A stretch of 11,092 nucleotides of DNA from Promethearchaeota archaeon. GTDB lineage: Archaea; Asgardarchaeota; Lokiarchaeia; Sigyniarchaeales; SOKP01. The DNA is taken from NCBI GenBank assembly GCA_048941265.1, contig JBHLNT010000137.1, positions 1 through 11,092 of the forward strand, given 5' to 3'. Position numbers and translations under genes: made by a program. The notes under the pieces were generated by a model. It searched no databases and was not told the origin of the DNA. It was given only the letters and a program-made list of their open reading frames with translations. This document shows positions 2,615-11,092 of the stretch, piece after piece (position 1 is the stretch's first letter; the number at the start of each line of letters is the position of its first letter).

Positions 2615-3112
2615 TTATTTATTCTGAGAAGTGGCAAGATAATTTATCCAAGCCCTTTGATCCTTTTCTAATAAAGATTTTACTAAGGAAAGCTTATCAA
2701 ACCCGGGAGTATCACGATATTTTTCTTTAAAGCTCTCGATTTGCTCATGTGCTTGCACGATTTCATTAGATTCTACAAGGATATCATATTTTTCATTCAA
2801 AATAAGGCATTCTTTCTCGATCTCTGTCTTAAAAAACTTTTTCTGTTCCTTCTTGGCTATTAATTGAAGTGTATCTTCTTGTTCTTTTATGCAATACATC
2901 ATATTATAACGAATCGCTAATTCTATAATTTGATTAGCAAGTTTTATCGCTTTTTCGTTATTTCCTTCAGCTATGTTTAAATCTTGATTAGATTTTAATT
3001 TATCAATTTCTAGCATAACATCTAATTTACTCATTCTTTCAACTTGTTGAGCGTCTTTTGCCTCTTCTAAGTCCTTAGTTTTTTTGGCTGATTTTTTCTC
3101 CTTCTTTTTCAT
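2615..3112 (-). CDS. Hypothetical protein, Lys/Glu-rich and predicted all-helical
   Basis: 165-aa ORF with ATG start, co-oriented upstream of the MFS gene. AEGNNEKAIKLANQIIELA resembles a TPR/MIT-like helical hairpin. No catalytic motif recognised. Confidence 0.8.
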   Translation of the reverse strand: MKKKEKKSAKKTKDLEEAKDAQQVERMSKLDVMLEIDKLKSNQDLNIAEGNNEKAIKLANQIIELAIRYNMMYCIKEQEDTLQLIAKKEQKKFFKTEIEKECLILNEKYDILVESNEIVQAHEQIESFKEKYRDTPGFDKLSLVKSLLEKDQRAWINYLATSQNK

Positions 3113-3598: not shown

Positions 3599-4444
3599 AT
3601 TAACTTATGGATACTTGATTCGGATAGTGGGATCAAATTACTATACAAATCATTTTTAAAACTTCGTACTGATGAAGATATTATATCCGGTTTTTTAACA
3701 GCTTTTAACCAATTCTCAGAGGTTCAATTTCAACAATCATTGGAATCCATAGAAATGGGCGGTTTACGCTGGGTATATACTATGGAACCCAGCTATAATC
3801 TTCTTATTGTTGCTGCTGAAAATAAAAATATAAAAACAGAGATGATTATAGGCAGATTAGAAGCTATTAAAAAAGCATTTATCGAAGAATACGGGTCGCT
3901 CTTTAAAAAGAGGGGCGATAGTTGGGATGGGAATGTTAAAATATTTTTACCATTTGCTCACGTAATTGAAGATTATTATAATCAATGGGGAGAAGTGGAA
4001 ACACTAGCTCAGGTGGCCGATCTTTATGATATATTGCGAATTTTTCAACAAATTTTAATCAAACTTCGAAATATTGTAAGTACTAGAATGTATAGTAAGT
4101 CTCGAAATAATATTCTAAATAAATTTGAAGATGCATATAATTCTCTTCTCCAACGGAAAAAATTTAGGAACCGACCCGAGTTAAATAATATCACATTCTC
4201 CAAAGAAACCTGGTTTAATCTTGTTGATATCGACTTGGTAAAATGTGATAAAGAAATACTTATTGATTATCTAAAAGCAGTTTTCAGAATTCTGATTACG
4301 ATATTAGTCGACATAAAAGGAAAAAATTTATGCTTGAAATACTTTAATGAAGAAAAAATTTATGCCTATATCTATAATAATTTAAAATTTCTGCAGGATC
4401 TGAATTTAGATCTTTTCTTTTTAGAGCTCTTCTTTCTAATATGA
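3599..4444 (+). CDS. Longin-like domain protein (N-terminal longin-type fold plus helical C-terminal domain); extends 47 codons upstream of the ORF-track call at 3740
   Basis: The frame is open upstream of 3740 back to TGA at 3566-3568: (I/M)NLWILDSDSGIKLLYKSFLKLRTDEDIISGFLTAFNQFSEVQFQQSLESIEMGGLRWVYTMEPSYNLLIVAAENK...IIGRLEAIKKAFIEEY...FAHVIEDY. This fits the beta-beta-alpha-beta-beta-beta-alpha-alpha pattern and the 'SGFLTA' helix typical of Asgard longin-like proteins. AGGTGT at 3587-3592 precedes ATT 3599. Confidence 0.8.
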   Translation: MNLWILDSDSGIKLLYKSFLKLRTDEDIISGFLTAFNQFSEVQFQQSLESIEMGGLRWVYTMEPSYNLLIVAAENKNIKTEMIIGRLEAIKKAFIEEYGSLFKKRGDSWDGNVKIFLPFAHVIEDYYNQWGEVETLAQVADLYDILRIFQQILIKLRNIVSTRMYSKSRNNILNKFEDAYNSLLQRKKFRNRPELNNITFSKETWFNLVDIDLVKCDKEILIDYLKAVFRILITILVDIKGKNLCLKYFNEEKIYAYIYNNLKFLQDLNLDLFFLELFFLI

Positions 4445-6347: not shown

Positions 6348-7274
6348 TTAAGACCTAGAAATTGCTTTGTCCACAAGTAATGACTCAACAGTATCAAGAT
6401 CTACGTATTCATTATACGAAATATGCGTTAAATTCTCACTAATTTGCCATAATTTTTTCTGATAAGTCTTATTATAGGATGCTTTGGATGACTTTTTTGG
6501 TTTGCGTTTTATAAAGTATTTTCCGGTAACATTTGTTACTTGTGGAGAGCTCGCAAGAAAGATAGATGTGCGAGCACCTTTCTTTGCACTTATCAAAAAC
6601 AATCTAAAGAAATTAAAAGCCAAATTAAATAGTTTTCCGCCATTATTTTTACCAAATTTAGTTCTTACAACTCCAGGATGAAGTGCGTTAACTGTAATAC
6701 CCGTATTTTCTAATCTTCTGGCAAGTTCATAGGTAAATAAAAGAATTGCAAGCTTTGAATTTCCATAGGCTCTAAACCCTTTATAATTCTGTTCCATGTG
6801 AATATCATTAAAATCAAGTTTAGCAGACCTGTGAGCATGTGAGGATACATTTATAATTCTTGCAGGTGTTGACTTTTTTAACAGATCTAAAACTAGATAA
6901 GTTAGTAAAAAATGACCGAGGTGATTAATAGCAAGTGTTTTTTCATAACCGTCTGAAGTTGTGGATCTTTTCATTAACCATAAACCAGCGTTGTTAATTA
7001 AGACATGAAGATTCTCATATTTCTTCTTGAATTCTTCAACCATTAATCTAATTGAGTTTTGATCCGCAAGATCTGCTAAGAATAATTCCACTTTTTCTGA
7101 ATTAGCCCGTTCTTTTATTTCTTTAAGTGCTTTCTCCCCACGTTCTTTATTCCGGCATACCAATATCACTGTTGCTCCCATTTTAGCAAGTTCAACTGCT
7201 GTTTCTTTACCAATACCCGAGTTTGCCCCGGTAATCATCACAATTTTTCCATTCATATCTACATATTCTTTCAT
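6348..7274 (-). CDS. Short-chain dehydrogenase/reductase, retinol dehydrogenase-like (RDH11-14/WWOX-type) classical SDR
   Basis: TGANSGIG cofactor motif, LINNAG, INHLGHFLLT, NVSS, catalytic YGNSK (YxxxK), LHPGVVRT and C-terminal LWQISE. SD GGGTGA lies 6 nt upstream of the ATG. Confidence 0.95.
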   Translation of the reverse strand: MKEYVDMNGKIVMITGANSGIGKETAVELAKMGATVILVCRNKERGEKALKEIKERANSEKVELFLADLADQNSIRLMVEEFKKKYENLHVLINNAGLWLMKRSTTSDGYEKTLAINHLGHFLLTYLVLDLLKKSTPARIINVSSHAHRSAKLDFNDIHMEQNYKGFRAYGNSKLAILLFTYELARRLENTGITVNALHPGVVRTKFGKNNGGKLFNLAFNFFRLFLISAKKGARTSIFLASSPQVTNVTGKYFIKRKPKKSSKASYNKTYQKKLWQISENLTHISYNEYVDLDTVESLLVDKAISRS

Positions 7275-7314: not shown

Positions 7315-7707
7315 ATCTAAAAATTAATAGTTGATAAAATTTAAAAGCGTTCTTTTCATAAATTATAAGGGATTAACCTTAAAGCTCCTTATATTTATAA
7401 TCTAAATCTGAATTTTAATAATTTAAAATAAATGAGGAAAATCTCTGACTTTAAAAATCGTTCTTGAATTCTTTGTTAAGCAATATGGTTTTTATTTAGT
7501 AGCTATTTTATTGGTTTACTGTCGAATTCTCAAAAATTGAATATTTTCTATCCTAAATTTTATGAATTTTAAGTTGTAAGAAAATTTCTACTATTAAAAT
7601 CTCTCTTTTCAGCATTTTTTTATTAAGTTTTTGCATAAAACTTTTTAATAAATGTAGCGCATGTATAATTTGGAATTCAAATAATATAATTAATCGAGGT
7701 AAAGCTG

Positions 7708-9276
7708 TTGTTAGTGAGTAAAGAAAAATATTTATTGGAGTTATATGAAGATTTTTTAGCATTAAATTCCGAGGTTGAAGCTATAATTCTTTCTGATCAT
7801 GAGGGTTTTATAATTGCGGGGGAAAAAAGAAAAAACATTGATATGGAACTAGTTTCTGTGATGTCCACTATTGTAAATCCTATTCTAGATAGATTTCGTG
7901 ATGAATTTGCATTTAAAAAATATGGATCGGCTTCTTTCGATACAGAAACACATAGATTACTATTCGTATCCGTAGGGGAAAATGCTACATTGAGTTTAGT
8001 CTTAAATATCTCTGCTTCTATAGATAAACTTTATCCATATGCTTACTATATTGCCGAAAAATCTGCCCAAATTATAAATGCTGCTGAAGATGAGAAAATT
8101 CAAATACAAATTCCAAATTTTGAATATCAAGTAGAAAAATCTGAAAAGTTACAGCACCAAATTTATCAAATGAGGTTAGACCAAGGTTTATCTTACAGAT
8201 TTAAATTCGTAATTGTTGGTGATTTAAAAGTAGGAAAAACATCAATAGTAAGGCGTTTTGTGGATAAAAAATTTTCTAAGGATTATCGCTCAACAATCGG
8301 TTTGAATATTTTATCACATCGATTTAATTTTTTGGATAATGATATCCATATAAACCTGTGGGATATTGGTGCTCAGAAATATTTCAAAAGGTTTCGCAAA
8401 ACCTATTACTCCGGCTCTCAAGCGGCTTTTATCGCTTTTGATTTGACCAACCGCGATTCATTTAATAATATTCAAAAATGGTATGTTGAATTGATAGACT
8501 TTATAGGAGGAAGAGATATTCCGATTGTACTCGTGGGAAATAAAAAAGATTTGGTTGATCAAAGAGATATTACTCCCGAGGAAGGAATTTCGATGGCAAA
8601 ATATCTGTCTGAGACAGGAACCTCAAAAATTTCGTATATAGAAACTAGCGCTCTTACCGGTGAAAACATAGATGATGCATTCAATTTAATCTCATATTTC
8701 TATATTCAAATTTCTCAGGAAAGAGAAGAAGAGGCTCTTAAAAACAATTTGGTGACCTTAATTAATTCGATTTTAAATAAAAAAAAATCCTTAAATATCT
8801 GCTTAATCACTGAAACTCCTTACTGGAACCCCATGTTCCAAATTTTAACTGAACTAAAAAGTTTAGGAAAAGTTTCGAAAATAAAAGATGAGAAGGACGA
8901 GAAGATATATCAATATGCGAACGGATTATTACTCCGAGGCTATACCATCAATACTATGAATGTTTCTGACGCTGACGCAGTTTTCTGCATTTTTGATGTT
9001 CGAAAGAAAGAACATATCAGTATTAAATGGATAGAAATTATTCATGATATTGTACAAGAAATAGGAATAAAAAAAGTTGTATTATGCGGAATGAGAGTTT
9101 CGGATGAAACTAATTGGTCCGTCCTGCTTGATGAATTTTATGGTCTCAATATAAATCCATTTTTAGAAAAACAGATGATCTCTCTCTTAATTTTTAAAAT
9201 TGGCGTTGAATATCGATTGGAAATCTATGAAAAATTAGAGATTATGTTTAATAATATTATAGAATCATTAATATAG
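7708..9276 (+). CDS. Roadblock/LC7(MglB)-like domain fused to a Rab/Ras-like small GTPase, with an additional C-terminal alpha/beta domain (eukaryotic-signature-type protein)
   Basis: aa ~1-125: helix + VEAIILSDHEGFIIA + helix + 3 strands + helix (roadblock pattern). aa ~163-333: G1 GDLKVGKT (8218-8241), G2 YRSTIG, G3 WDIGAQ (D at 8362), G4 NKKD (8539-8550), G5 ETSAL. SD GAGGT at 7696-7700 lies 7 nt before TTG 7708. Confidence 0.93.
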   Translation: MLVSKEKYLLELYEDFLALNSEVEAIILSDHEGFIIAGEKRKNIDMELVSVMSTIVNPILDRFRDEFAFKKYGSASFDTETHRLLFVSVGENATLSLVLNISASIDKLYPYAYYIAEKSAQIINAAEDEKIQIQIPNFEYQVEKSEKLQHQIYQMRLDQGLSYRFKFVIVGDLKVGKTSIVRRFVDKKFSKDYRSTIGLNILSHRFNFLDNDIHINLWDIGAQKYFKRFRKTYYSGSQAAFIAFDLTNRDSFNNIQKWYVELIDFIGGRDIPIVLVGNKKDLVDQRDITPEEGISMAKYLSETGTSKISYIETSALTGENIDDAFNLISYFYIQISQEREEEALKNNLVTLINSILNKKKSLNICLITETPYWNPMFQILTELKSLGKVSKIKDEKDEKIYQYANGLLLRGYTINTMNVSDADAVFCIFDVRKKEHISIKWIEIIHDIVQEIGIKKVVLCGMRVSDETNWSVLLDEFYGLNINPFLEKQMISLLIFKIGVEYRLEIYEKLEIMFNNIIESLI

Positions 9277-9303: not shown

Positions 9304-9684
9304 TTAATAAGTTTCATCAAAATCGCCAAGAGCTCTAAATTCTTCTGTTTTGCCCGGTTCTGCATCAAAAGCTTTTTGTAATAATTCTGCGGCTCGTTGC
9401 CAAATTGTTTTTAGATTAGTGCGTATAATTTCAAATTCTTCTCTATTTTTCATCTGTAATAGGACGGTTTTAAAATCTTCATTTACATCAATTTCAATAG
9501 GAATTTCTTCTGCTACTCCTCCAAAGATCCGAATCATCTCTCGTATTTCGTTTGGGGAACCTAAATCTCCGGGAACATAATCTTTTATTTTCACTTTTAA
9601 TTCAATTAATAATTGATTCTCATTTTCTATAATTTCTACAGCATTCTTTAATGTTTCACTTAATTTTGGGAATAATTCTTCCAT
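9304..9684 (-). CDS. Hypothetical acidic protein (126 aa)
   Basis: ATG preceded by AAGGTGT. It lies 40 bp downstream of the co-oriented CocE/NonD gene and has plausible alpha/beta composition. No motif recognised. Confidence 0.8.
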   Translation of the reverse strand: MEELFPKLSETLKNAVEIIENENQLLIELKVKIKDYVPGDLGSPNEIREMIRIFGGVAEEIPIEIDVNEDFKTVLLQMKNREEFEIIRTNLKTIWQRAAELLQKAFDAEPGKTEEFRALGDFDETY

Positions 9685-9724: not shown

Positions 9725-11092
9725 TTAATTCCTTTCTATAAATGGAATTTCTATAAAGGAAGGATTTTTGCTATTTCGTTCAAGGGTAATAATAGGTTTT
9801 CCATCAGCAGGATAACGCATAAAAACCTCCTTATCTGCCCCCGCAATTGCTACCCGAATTCTATGACCTTTCTTCACTAATACAGATGTTACGTGTAAGC
9901 CAAATTTAATTTCCGAGATCTCATCTGGTACAAGAGGGAGAGCATCTTTTTTCATAAAAGTATGATAAGGAATTAGCATCTTATATGGAGGGTTCTCTAA
10001 GGATATTTTTCTGTGAATTAATCGCAAATTACCATCAGTTATATAAGTTACGTTTCCTGCCTCATCAACATCTTCTAAATATACAAAAATCGCTCCATCA
10101 TCATGAGTCGATGACAGATATAATGTAATTATTGGAGTTCCCGTAATTTCTAAATCTTTTTCTAAAGAAATACTCGTATAAGTGAGTAGTTTTTTGTCAG
10201 CTCTGGTTCTATTGCTGTAATCAATTGGGAGCCCTGCTGGTGCCATCCACCGATTTAATAAACCTGTTGTTGTTCTAAAATTAATCTTATAGTCGTCTGC
10301 TCCGTCATTCGCTTGAGGTTTATTTGGACGTAATCCATTATTTTCTTGAAAATACCACATTTGTGAAGATTGTCCTAAAGGAGGCCATATTTCCGATTTC
10401 TTCCATCTCTCTTCACCCATAGTGTAATAATATAAAATTTTTTCTGAATAATCTCCATTAAGAATTCTGTTAAAGAAGCTAATTTCAGTTTTAATCCGAT
10501 TGTGCGGGGAAGGAATTACTTCTGATTTAGACGGGTAAAAAGGATTGGCGGGGAGATGAGCTCCATGATTCCAATCACCAATTATCGCAATCTGAGGATT
10601 TTTTAAATTTAAAAAACGCTGGATAACTACATCAGCAAAATTCGCATCCAACCATGAAGCCCAGCTATAAATAGGAATATTAAATTTTTGTAATTCCTGT
10701 TGATATCGAAAAAGGCTCCTGAAATCGAATGCCCTTTGTTCATTTCCAATTTTAACAAGATCCTCGCGATAGTTTACCTCGCTAATATTGTCAAAAACAG
10801 CTTCATTATTGTTATGTTCTTGAATAGCCTCTTTTAATTGAGTATAATTCGTATCTGAGTGTACTTGCTTTACTCCCTTCATTAGCATCCAACGAAATGG
10901 GATGAGGATCTTCATATGCTTTTGTACGTTTTGATCCAGTTGTTTTCCATAAAACGACCATAATTGAATAAAAGCAGTGTTAAAACACCCTCCCGGGAAA
11001 ATCATATCATAATATGGATCCCAACCATTATGACCAGGCATTACACTTTTAACTGCTGGATGATTATTGGTTGCTAACCATTCTGATGTAAA
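9725..11092 (-). CDS. CocE/NonD family serine hydrolase (peptidase S15/PepX_C type), 5'-truncated by window edge
   Basis: The frame stays open to the edge (FTSEWLATNNHPAVKSV-MPGHNGWDPY), so ATG 11041 is internal. Acid motif SWLD, His motif IGDWNHG, and a C-terminal jelly-roll signature LTYTS..LEKDLEITGTP...YITDGNLR...KKGHRIRVAIAG. Confidence 0.92.
   Translation of the reverse strand, partial: FTSEWLATNNHPAVKSVMPGHNGWDPYYDMIFPGGCFNTAFIQLWSFYGKQLDQNVQKHMKILIPFRWMLMKGVKQVHSDTNYTQLKEAIQEHNNNEAVFDNISEVNYREDLVKIGNEQRAFDFRSLFRYQQELQKFNIPIYSWASWLDANFADVVIQRFLNLKNPQIAIIGDWNHGAHLPANPFYPSKSEVIPSPHNRIKTEISFFNRILNGDYSEKILYYYTMGEERWKKSEIWPPLGQSSQMWYFQENNGLRPNKPQANDGADDYKINFRTTTGLLNRWMAPAGLPIDYSNRTRADKKLLTYTSISLEKDLEITGTPIITLYLSSTHDDGAIFVYLEDVDEAGNVTYITDGNLRLIHRKISLENPPYKMLIPYHTFMKKDALPLVPDEISEIKFGLHVTSVLVKKGHRIRVAIAGADKEVFMRYPADGKPIITLERNSKNPSFIEIPFIERN

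Follow-up and report, generated by a model that had tools for sequence, protein, structure and literature searches.

The locus considered here raises the question of what a single archaeal polypeptide might accomplish with a roadblock domain, a small GTPase domain, and a further domain that appears to retain the GTPase fold after the loss of its nucleotide-binding motifs. The gene lies on contig JBHLNT010000137.1 (assembly GCA_048941265.1) of a Promethearchaeota archaeon of Lokiarchaeial (Asgard) type, within a stretch of 11,092 nucleotides referred to as the window, and comprises a single open frame of 522 codons plus a stop codon (7708..9276, +). A preliminary description, made from the DNA alone, had proposed that its product fuses a roadblock-like domain, a Rab-like GTPase and a putative pseudoGTPase. 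The analyses presented here establish the three-domain anatomy of the protein, the state of its motifs, its conservation, and the pairing of its genes in related genomes; by analogy with known systems, it is also fairly probable that the protein combines a roadblock-dimer platform with a live Rab-like G domain and a dead G fold serving as a G-shaped interaction surface.

The pseudoGTPase candidate occupies the C-terminus of the protein (aa 362-522; 8791..9273, +) and is recognized by its model, by fold searches, and by motif loss. In the full-length model, residues 362-521 form a compact domain with a predicted local distance difference test (pLDDT) score of 82-95, and this C-module, when modelled alone with 32 homologues, reaches a pLDDT of 91.6 and a predicted template-modelling score (pTM) of 0.87. 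It is preceded by a helix of 39 residues (8668..8790, +; H321-359 in the model), in which the last helix of the central G domain is extended into the C-module. Some 160 extra C-terminal residues had been noted initially, a figure that holds for the globular module (160 residues) and falls short of the total of about 200 reached when helix 321-359 is included. Foldseek searches of the PDB with the C-module returned small GTPases almost exclusively among the 50 matches listed, the best being Arf1 and Arl1 (E 6.4e-6 to 2.5e-5, template-modelling score 0.55-0.65). Similarly, the VIA wide fold search, which is independent of Foldseek and covers 48,161 representative chains, placed the Asgard Arf 8oul first (Z 13.5, root-mean-square deviation (rmsd) 3.5, 165 residues aligned), followed by Sar1 (Z 13.2) and Arf (Z 12.6), and also listed LokiRagO (Z 11.1), LokiRagM (Z 11.0) and RagD (Z 11.0). 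In a second look with VIA, the top 39 of 50 rows were all Arf, Arl or Sar proteins, mostly GDP-bound and full-length, with the N-terminal helix aligned; ARL5 (1zj6) was the best of these (Z 14.3, rmsd 3.0, 162/173 residues), and HodArfR1 (8oul) scored Z 14.0. In the C-module model the long helix packs like the N-terminal helix of Arf-GDP.

Sequence profiles point in the same direction. The seven best PDB matches of the C-module profile are all small GTPases, among them Rnd1 (E 9.4e-5), RhoE and Arf1, and the alignment is co-linear (79-135 on 79-135) across strand 4, helix 3 and strand 5. A feature search of the protein Atlas with the C-module returned Ras, Arf and CENP-M clusters, all with scores of at most 0.90, which serve as leads only. 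Taken together, the model and the searches make a G-domain fold well supported. The GDP-bound Arf, Arl and Sar proteins (ARL5 1zj6, HodArfR1 8oul) share with the C-module the best superposition and the packed N-terminal helix, whereas the C-module is only 8-15% identical to them and is without nucleotide motifs, and an Arf origin suggested by the models is a structural lead only. Descent from Arf was also sought by sequence and gained no support there, the hhalign probabilities being 0.5% against Arf/Rag-like domains of the window's own genome and 9.7% against the G domain of the same protein.

The loss of motifs was followed through the family using contigs of species-representative genomes, in which 157 stretches encode a relative; 80 loci were kept, 78 of them with at least one full-length copy, and the window protein together with 131 full-length copies from these 78 loci forms the 132-row alignment and tree used throughout. 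Walker A (GxxxxGK[ST]) is found in the C-module of 0 of the 132 family rows. Specifically, the loop after strand 1 is shortened and reads E-N-P-F-W-S-P-G-L-Q, the position of G4 (NKxD) is occupied by G-[IV]-R-V-S, and that of G5 (SAx) by F-F-K-I-G. The most conserved residues of the module nevertheless lie in the loops equivalent to G1, G4 and G5 (W373, P375, Q378, D430, R432, G461, R463, K/R497, G499), and such conservation of the former nucleotide loops would be compatible with a remodelled site for a ligand or a partner. The ratio of nonsynonymous to synonymous substitution rates (dN/dS) in 8/8 close pairs is 0.02-0.19 for the C-module, 0.03-0.38 for the roadblock and 0.03-0.14 for the G domain; because of these values for the C-module, the substitution pattern indicates that it is functional and under purifying selection rather than decaying. 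With a G fold supported by a confident model and by fold searches, and with its nucleotide motifs lost, the third module is upheld as a pseudoGTPase candidate, for which a nucleotide-free state is predicted.

The central module (aa 162-320; 8191..8667, +) is a Ras-superfamily, Rab-like G domain according to Pfam, PDB matches and Foldseek. Pfam Ras (PF00071) matches aa 166-328 with E 9.3e-44 and 149.3 bits against a cut-off of 21.6, with Roc and Arf scoring lower, and among NCBIfam models the generic small_GTP domain alone lies above its cut-off (TIGR00231, 80.4 bits vs 42.5). The closest solved relative by sequence is a Thorarchaeota Rab (7ezb, E 9.4e-31), with Rab6 and Rab14 coming next, and Foldseek with the whole 522-aa model found Rab6, Rab8, Rab9 and Thor-Rab, all matching the central domain only. 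The earlier assignment as Rab-like is thereby supported. The C-terminal prenylatable Cys of Rab proper was looked for at the end of the protein, which reads ...IIESLI, and none is present; because of this, and because the G domain is internal, the term Rab-like denotes similarity and not membership of the Rab family.

The same domain had been described as a complete G1-G5 GTPase. This holds for G1, G2, G4 and G5, as GxxxxGK[ST], the switch-I Thr, NKxD and SA[KL] are each present in 132/132 rows, as is the switch-II Gln, but G3 is non-canonical. Instead of DxAGQ, the window protein carries D-I-G-A-Q (aa 219-223; 8362..8376, +), with Gly and Ala swapped. D219 and Q223 are invariant, the latter in 132/132 rows, G221 is found in 131/132, and position 222 is Ala in 123/132, Gly in 7 and Ser in 2; canonical DxAGQ occurs in a single row (1/132). 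For comparison, four other small GTPases of the window's own genome carry DxAGQ and one carries DIGGQ. The P-loop is likewise altered: the window protein reads GDLKVGKTS (aa 171-179; 8218..8244, +) where the family consensus is GDHEVGKTS, and where Ras has G12 and G13, the family has H173 (110/132) and E174 (99/132), the window protein L173 and K174. In Ras and G-alpha, the DxxG glycine is the sensor of the gamma-phosphate, and a side chain at position 12 interferes with GTPase-activating proteins (GAPs) of the arginine-finger kind. The central domain is nucleotide-competent-looking, and DxGAQ together with the bulky His/Glu P-loop residues is therefore taken to hint at hydrolysis that is slow or depends on a partner, and suggests a route other than arginine-finger GAP catalysis. 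The 5.0-Mb assembly of this organism yields 68 matches to the small-GTPase query, 17 to Robl_LC7 and 9 strong matches to an Arf profile, several of the last lying in long open reading frames (ORFs; 315-1124 aa) with Rag-like HKxD motifs.

At the N-terminus lies a divergent roadblock/LC7 domain (aa 3-124; 7714..8079, +), assigned by profile matches, by hhalign, and by the topology of the model. A Pfam scan of the N-terminal 160 aa found 0 families even at E<=10, the gathering score of PF03259 not being reached, and because of this negative single-sequence result the module is filed as a divergent member of the roadblock superfamily and not as a Pfam-threshold member. Profile against PDB gave four matches, three of them Roadblock/LC7 proteins (best 7yh1_D, E 2.5e-4; also 9jue_D and 7f8m_A). 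The hhalign comparison with 13 Robl_LC7 proteins of the own genome reached a probability of 96.2% (E 2.2e-9, 117 columns), and 80.2% (E 1.4e-5, 74 columns) when the query was restricted to three-module members, excluding the bridging two-module paralogues. These paralogues are four roadblock-GTPase proteins of the own genome (319-359 aa), whose N-termini are matched by the N-module at E 2.3e-18 to 1.7e-8; one of them (on C282) passes Pfam Robl_LC7 with 24.1 bits vs a cut-off of 23, and two further ones match Robl_LC7 weakly. A stand-alone Robl_LC7 protein of 149 aa from the same genome (Pfam E 1e-14) also matches the N-module (E 0.001). Finally, the topology read from the full-length AlphaFold2 model is alpha-beta-beta-alpha-beta-beta-beta-alpha (DSSP: H2-19 E23-30 E35-40 H46-67 E74-78 E82-89 E93-100 H105-124), with moderate confidence (block pLDDT 48-86). 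Pfam is blind to the domain, but profile, hhalign (80-96%) and model topology all agree, and the N-terminus, for which a segment-wise check had been proposed, thus models with a roadblock and not some other fold.

Between the roadblock and G domains runs a linker (aa 125-161; 8080..8190, +) that is modelled as disordered (pLDDT about 30). Despite this modelled disorder, it contains the conserved motifs IPNFEYE and QIYQMRLDxGG (consensus), with P136 and F138 present in 132/132 rows and Q154 in 129/132. The invariant residues P136 and F138 and the motifs are as yet accounted for by none of the explanations weighed below.

The protein belongs to a family of conserved length and restricted distribution. 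Among 8000 candidates scored from 5.8 billion clustered proteins, 947 matched at E<=0.001, and the best 120 of the 947 are all full-length (477-582 aa, 54-92% identity, 91-100% query coverage); among the matches listed, the source names are 'GTP-binding protein', 'small GTP-binding protein' or 'Rab family GTPase' and the source records are of Lokiarchaeota/Promethearchaeota type. A HMMER profile search with the C-module alone (1.84 billion representatives, E<=0.001) found just 45 proteins, of which six are 508-894 aa long with the module near the C-terminus (P0125 has further sequence behind it), while the other 39, at 26-374 aa, are possibly fragments; this search reached no canonical GTPase. 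Short proteins of 179-267 aa consisting of the C-module only (P0122-P0124, P0126, P0127, P0132) are either fragments or stand-alone forms. A variant of the family, seen at L085:6001-8466 (+) and in the 894-aa protein P0125, carries a coiled coil and TPR repeats (TPR_1, E 7e-35) behind its C-module.

A survey of the phylum covering 400 genomes detected the C-module in 124/134 genomes of the window's family-level clade. Within the same order, a second family had it in 1/1 genome, with a weaker match (E 5.9e-26), and a third, sister family in 0/14 genomes, two single-contig genomes included. One other family contributed 1/22 genomes, the match lying on a 4.3-kb contig from a bin about 9% contaminated, and all remaining families gave 0. 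The full architecture is essentially confined to one family-level clade. Some record titles conflict with this tight distribution, naming Thor-, Odin-, Hod- or Hermodarchaeota (L012, L055, L014, L011), and a typical tandem pair (L027, DATKTW010000108.1) is filed under 'Candidatus Nanopelagicaceae bacterium'; such discordant titles are probably depositor labels or mis-binned contigs.

Most relatives encode the protein twice. Two full-length copies stand in tandem on the same strand in 53/78 loci, with a median gap of about 144 nt (for example L019:6001-7563 and 7694-9253; related loci L017-L087). In a FastTree tree of the 132 sequences, 52/53 downstream copies form one clade (support 97), and the other clade holds all 53 upstream copies and the window protein. 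Median identity between tandem partners is 64% for the roadblock, 62% for the G domain and 46% for the C-module. In four loci with match spans of 2.2 kb an intein or insertion was considered and rejected: an extra small-GTPase gene or fragment adjoins the first copy.

A second element recurs beside these genes. Directly upstream of the family gene, in 69/73 loci with sufficient flank, stands a divergently transcribed gene for a RING-TPR protein of about 190-200 aa, composed of zf-RING_2 and TPR (L019:5325-5897, -; L012:3459-4031, -; in the own genome L091:761-1354, -), an adjacency that may reflect a functional link or merely inherited synteny. Thiamine-synthesis genes and isopropylmalate/isocitrate dehydrogenase also lie near these standard loci. 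The locus L085 mentioned above is without a RING-TPR neighbour.

The window copy, the only one in the window, departs from this arrangement. It and the copy at L009, with which it pairs in the upstream-type clade (88% identity, long branch of 0.38), are both without the RING-TPR context, and common to both are an ORF of 126 or 128 aa and an S15 peptidase. The window genome encodes a second paralogue on contig C130 (G000:C130:10668-11123; L091:1456-1965), which is 59% identical over aa 5-156 and truncated at the contig end, the rest being missing from the assembly. This paralogue has a RING-TPR gene (E 9.3e-9) and ThiD in front of it, and because it holds the standard context, the window gene is read as a relocated, diverged duplicate. 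The window copy parts from the rest of the family at 23 sites where conservation elsewhere is 90% or more; G376M and an insertion of three residues in the C-module are among these differences. Purifying selection still acts on it (dN/dS 0.069 vs L009).

How these features might work together is best approached through the roadblock. In the favoured reading, this domain would dimerise, as it does in MglB, in Ragulator and at the C-termini of Rag proteins, either with itself or with the paralogue found in tandem in most relatives, so that heterodimers are possible. The roadblock dimer would then form a platform for reading or regulating the live G domain, and the dead G domain would offer a constant G-shaped surface, either as an in-cis partner of the live domain or as a docking site for effectors. 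Such a dimer would resemble a Rag-type switch of several G domains in which just one kind of G domain cycles. Several observations weigh against this proposal. The full-length model, with a pTM of 0.52 and a linker pLDDT of about 30, leaves the interdomain geometry uncertain; the upstream and downstream copies are fixed differently at 1 alignment position, which is little sign, in the sequences compared, of a specialisation like that of RagA/B versus RagC/D; and in the window's genus most genomes have just one C-module match, because of which a paralogue heterodimer could not be obligatory. The identity of the dead fold itself is also touched, since VIA wide lists TIR, receiver and B12-binding folds at Z 9.2-10.8, the first non-GTPase appearing at 10.8, and hhalign gave the C-module a probability of 9.7% against the protein's own G domain and 0.5% against nine Arf/Rag-like domains of the own genome.

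That separate genes were joined into one long ORF by an error of assembly or annotation can be set aside with near certainty. The same unbroken architecture occurs on independent contigs in many assemblies and all modules are under purifying selection, which refutes it; chance is likewise excluded because homologues span 91-100% of the length at 54-92% identity and dN/dS is 0.069 against the closest orthologue (L009), so that the single long ORF originally proposed is real. The fold-search and hhalign figures just given lend some weight to convergence, with the C-module a three-layer alpha/beta domain of generic kind (like receiver, TIR or flavodoxin domains) that merely resembles a G domain: TIR folds score Z 10.0, receivers 9.2-9.6 and B12-binding folds 10.2-10.5 in VIA wide, the profile-profile matches to real G domains are non-significant, and HMMER reached no canonical GTPase. 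Against convergence, GTPases score about 3 Z units higher and align over 160-170/182 residues, PDB sequence-profile matches at E<1 are small GTPases only, co-linear over 79-135, and the strand order and the beta4-alpha3-beta5 motif agree with Ras-like proteins; we consider this origin very unlikely. A C-module that is a G fold might instead have a remodelled pocket, binding a nucleotide, a phosphate-bearing ligand or a peptide non-canonically and acting as a sensor rather than a passive scaffold. The placement of its best-conserved residues, polar or aromatic, in the G1/G4/G5-equivalent loops would suit such a role, yet the pocket is without the Walker A Lys/Ser and the NKxD Asp, strand 1 is followed by a shortened loop, and a sensor appears improbable.

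The remaining alternatives concern how the modules are coupled. A self-regulated monomer, in which the roadblock folds back on the G domain as an MglB-like GAP or guanine nucleotide exchange factor, with the C-module as an effector-docking appendage and without any dimer, would find a linker of 37 residues that is long enough and carries invariant residues, and the one copy seen in most genomes of the window's genus would suit it. Roadblock proteins of the MglB type bring no arginine finger to the Ras-like GTPase that they regulate, a mode of action that would suit the His/Glu P-loop. Known roadblock regulators, however, work as dimers (as also presented in the sections of Tran 2024, PMC10933270, drawn on here), and tandem pairs of paralogues are kept in 53/78 loci, making a monomer rather unlikely, if the least so of these alternatives. 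More elaborate is a Rag-like switch within one chain, in which, on a roadblock platform for dimerisation, a live DxGAQ Rab-like domain would be coupled to an Arf-shaped pseudoGTPase frozen in a GDP-like state, the helix would relay the nucleotide state, and the RING-TPR protein would serve as an E3-like output or regulator; the 'N-terminal helix' of the pseudoGTPase would here be its tether to the live domain. We regard this version as doubtful. If true, it would represent the first archaeal pseudoGTPase found in the literature searched and an independent invention of the pairing of live and dead G domains.

The roadblock-GTPase portion of the protein belongs to a theme already known in Asgard archaea. 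Fusions of this kind were reported in Lokiarchaeum (Klinger 2016, as summarized in Box 1 of Dey 2016, PMC4917890), and in strain MK-D1, 26/74 GTPases are joined to roadblock or longin domains, including 'RB-GTPase architectures' and '?' domains of unknown function (Fig. 1f of Tran 2024, PMC10933270). The order of roadblock then GTPase, which might have been thought new, has accordingly been published for both organisms. The four two-module paralogues of the window's own genome share with the present family an N-terminal roadblock and a Ras-superfamily G domain; the family differs in adding the long helix and a second, motif-less G fold, and in having DxGAQ where three of the four have DxAGQ (none was found in L092). 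What sets the family apart from this theme is the appended pseudoGTPase candidate, together with DxGAQ, the tandem pairs and the RING-TPR neighbour. The portions of the Asgard GTPase literature examined here make no mention of a second, degenerate G domain, and most multidomain Asgard signature proteins have lineage-specific architectures according to the part of the Liu 2020 preprint considered. Neither the three-module architecture nor an archaeal pseudoGTPase was found described in the searchable literature, although the supplementary tables of Tran 2024 and asCOG may list the family. The possibility raised at the outset, that this is an already characterised family, was not borne out by the literature and database searches, in which the sources give generic GTPase names.

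Rag/Gtr GTPases with Ragulator, and the Asgard Rag-like proteins (8yl2, 9m28), share with the window protein a small G domain covalently linked to a roadblock-type domain, co-encoded paralogue pairs, several G-fold units per assembly, and structural matches to the C-module. The domain order in the model, roadblock then G domain, is the reverse of that of Rag, as recognized initially. Both partners of a Rag heterodimer bind nucleotide, whereas in the window protein the live G domain is Rab-like by score and the second G fold is motif-less and in cis. Gtr1_RagA (PF04670) has no match in the window protein at E<=0.01, and some orthologues carry a precomputed PF04670 label. The MglA-MglB system likewise pairs a roadblock regulator with a Ras-like GTPase, and MglA-GDP matches the C-module (Z 10.2-10.3). 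MglA and MglB are separate polypeptides, MglB being a dimeric GAP, and to our knowledge the system has no pseudoGTPase module. Roadblock behaviour in MglB dimers on MglA, in Ragulator, and in the Rag C-terminal domains is reviewed in the introduction of Tran 2024 (PMC10933270), and section 7 of the same paper models roadblock-mediated heterodimers of operon-paired, Rag-like MK-D1 GTPases.

The closest functional analogues would be the eukaryotic pseudoGTPases p190RhoGAP, CENP-M and Rnd, in which the G fold is kept as an interaction module after motif loss, as described in the consulted portion of PMC10211241. The same source describes p190RhoGAP as a single chain in which one domain binds GTP and two are pseudoGTPase domains free of nucleotide, and several G-like domains in one chain are also what the window protein has. 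Rnd1 is the best PDB sequence match of the C-module profile, and the CENP-M cluster has an Atlas score of 0.89, a lead only. The family differs from these proteins in being archaeal and in carrying a roadblock and an apparently live Rab-like domain, and no sequence relationship between the C-module and the eukaryotic pseudoGTPase families is detectable beyond the shared fold.

Small GTPases and their roadblock and longin regulators are central to arguments on how eukaryotic membrane and signalling machinery arose from Asgard archaea. The family adds to these a conserved, selected chain of live G domain, dead G domain and roadblock that goes beyond the published two-domain fusions, and its design may bear on the origin of paired-GTPase regulators. 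Since it is found essentially in one family-level clade only, it would be a lineage-specific elaboration and not an ancestor of the eukaryotic system, which limits its weight for eukaryogenesis. It also provides a compact, expressible system for studying the control of a GTPase by a roadblock in cis, and is suited to asking what a pseudoGTPase does in a prokaryote and what effect a natural Gly/Ala swap in switch II has.

The gene begins with TTG at 7708 or with an alternative GTG at 7714. Orthologues have ATG at the aligned start position in the alignment, and the protein Atlas record begins at the GTG, two codons downstream of the TTG, so that the start is either 7708 or 7714. A GAGGT (7696..7700, +) located 8 nt upstream of the TTG is a possible ribosome-binding site; the local G+C content is about 29-32%. 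Upstream lies a short-chain dehydrogenase (6348-7274, -). Downstream, the 126-aa ORF mentioned above (9304-9684, -) is convergent with the fusion gene and matches no Pfam family, and because it is 74% identical to the 128-aa ORF at the same place in L009 it is considered a real conserved gene; it is followed by the S15 peptidase (9725-11041, -). More distant genes of the window encode an aldo-keto reductase with ferredoxin domains, a major facilitator superfamily (MFS) transporter and an alpha/beta hydrolase, and among the gene families represented in the 11,092 nt no functional link to the fusion gene is obvious. The window also contains a 234-aa ORF without a Pfam family (3740-4444, +) and a 165-aa ORF (2615-3112, -) with a sub-threshold match to HNHc_6 (E 0.0033).

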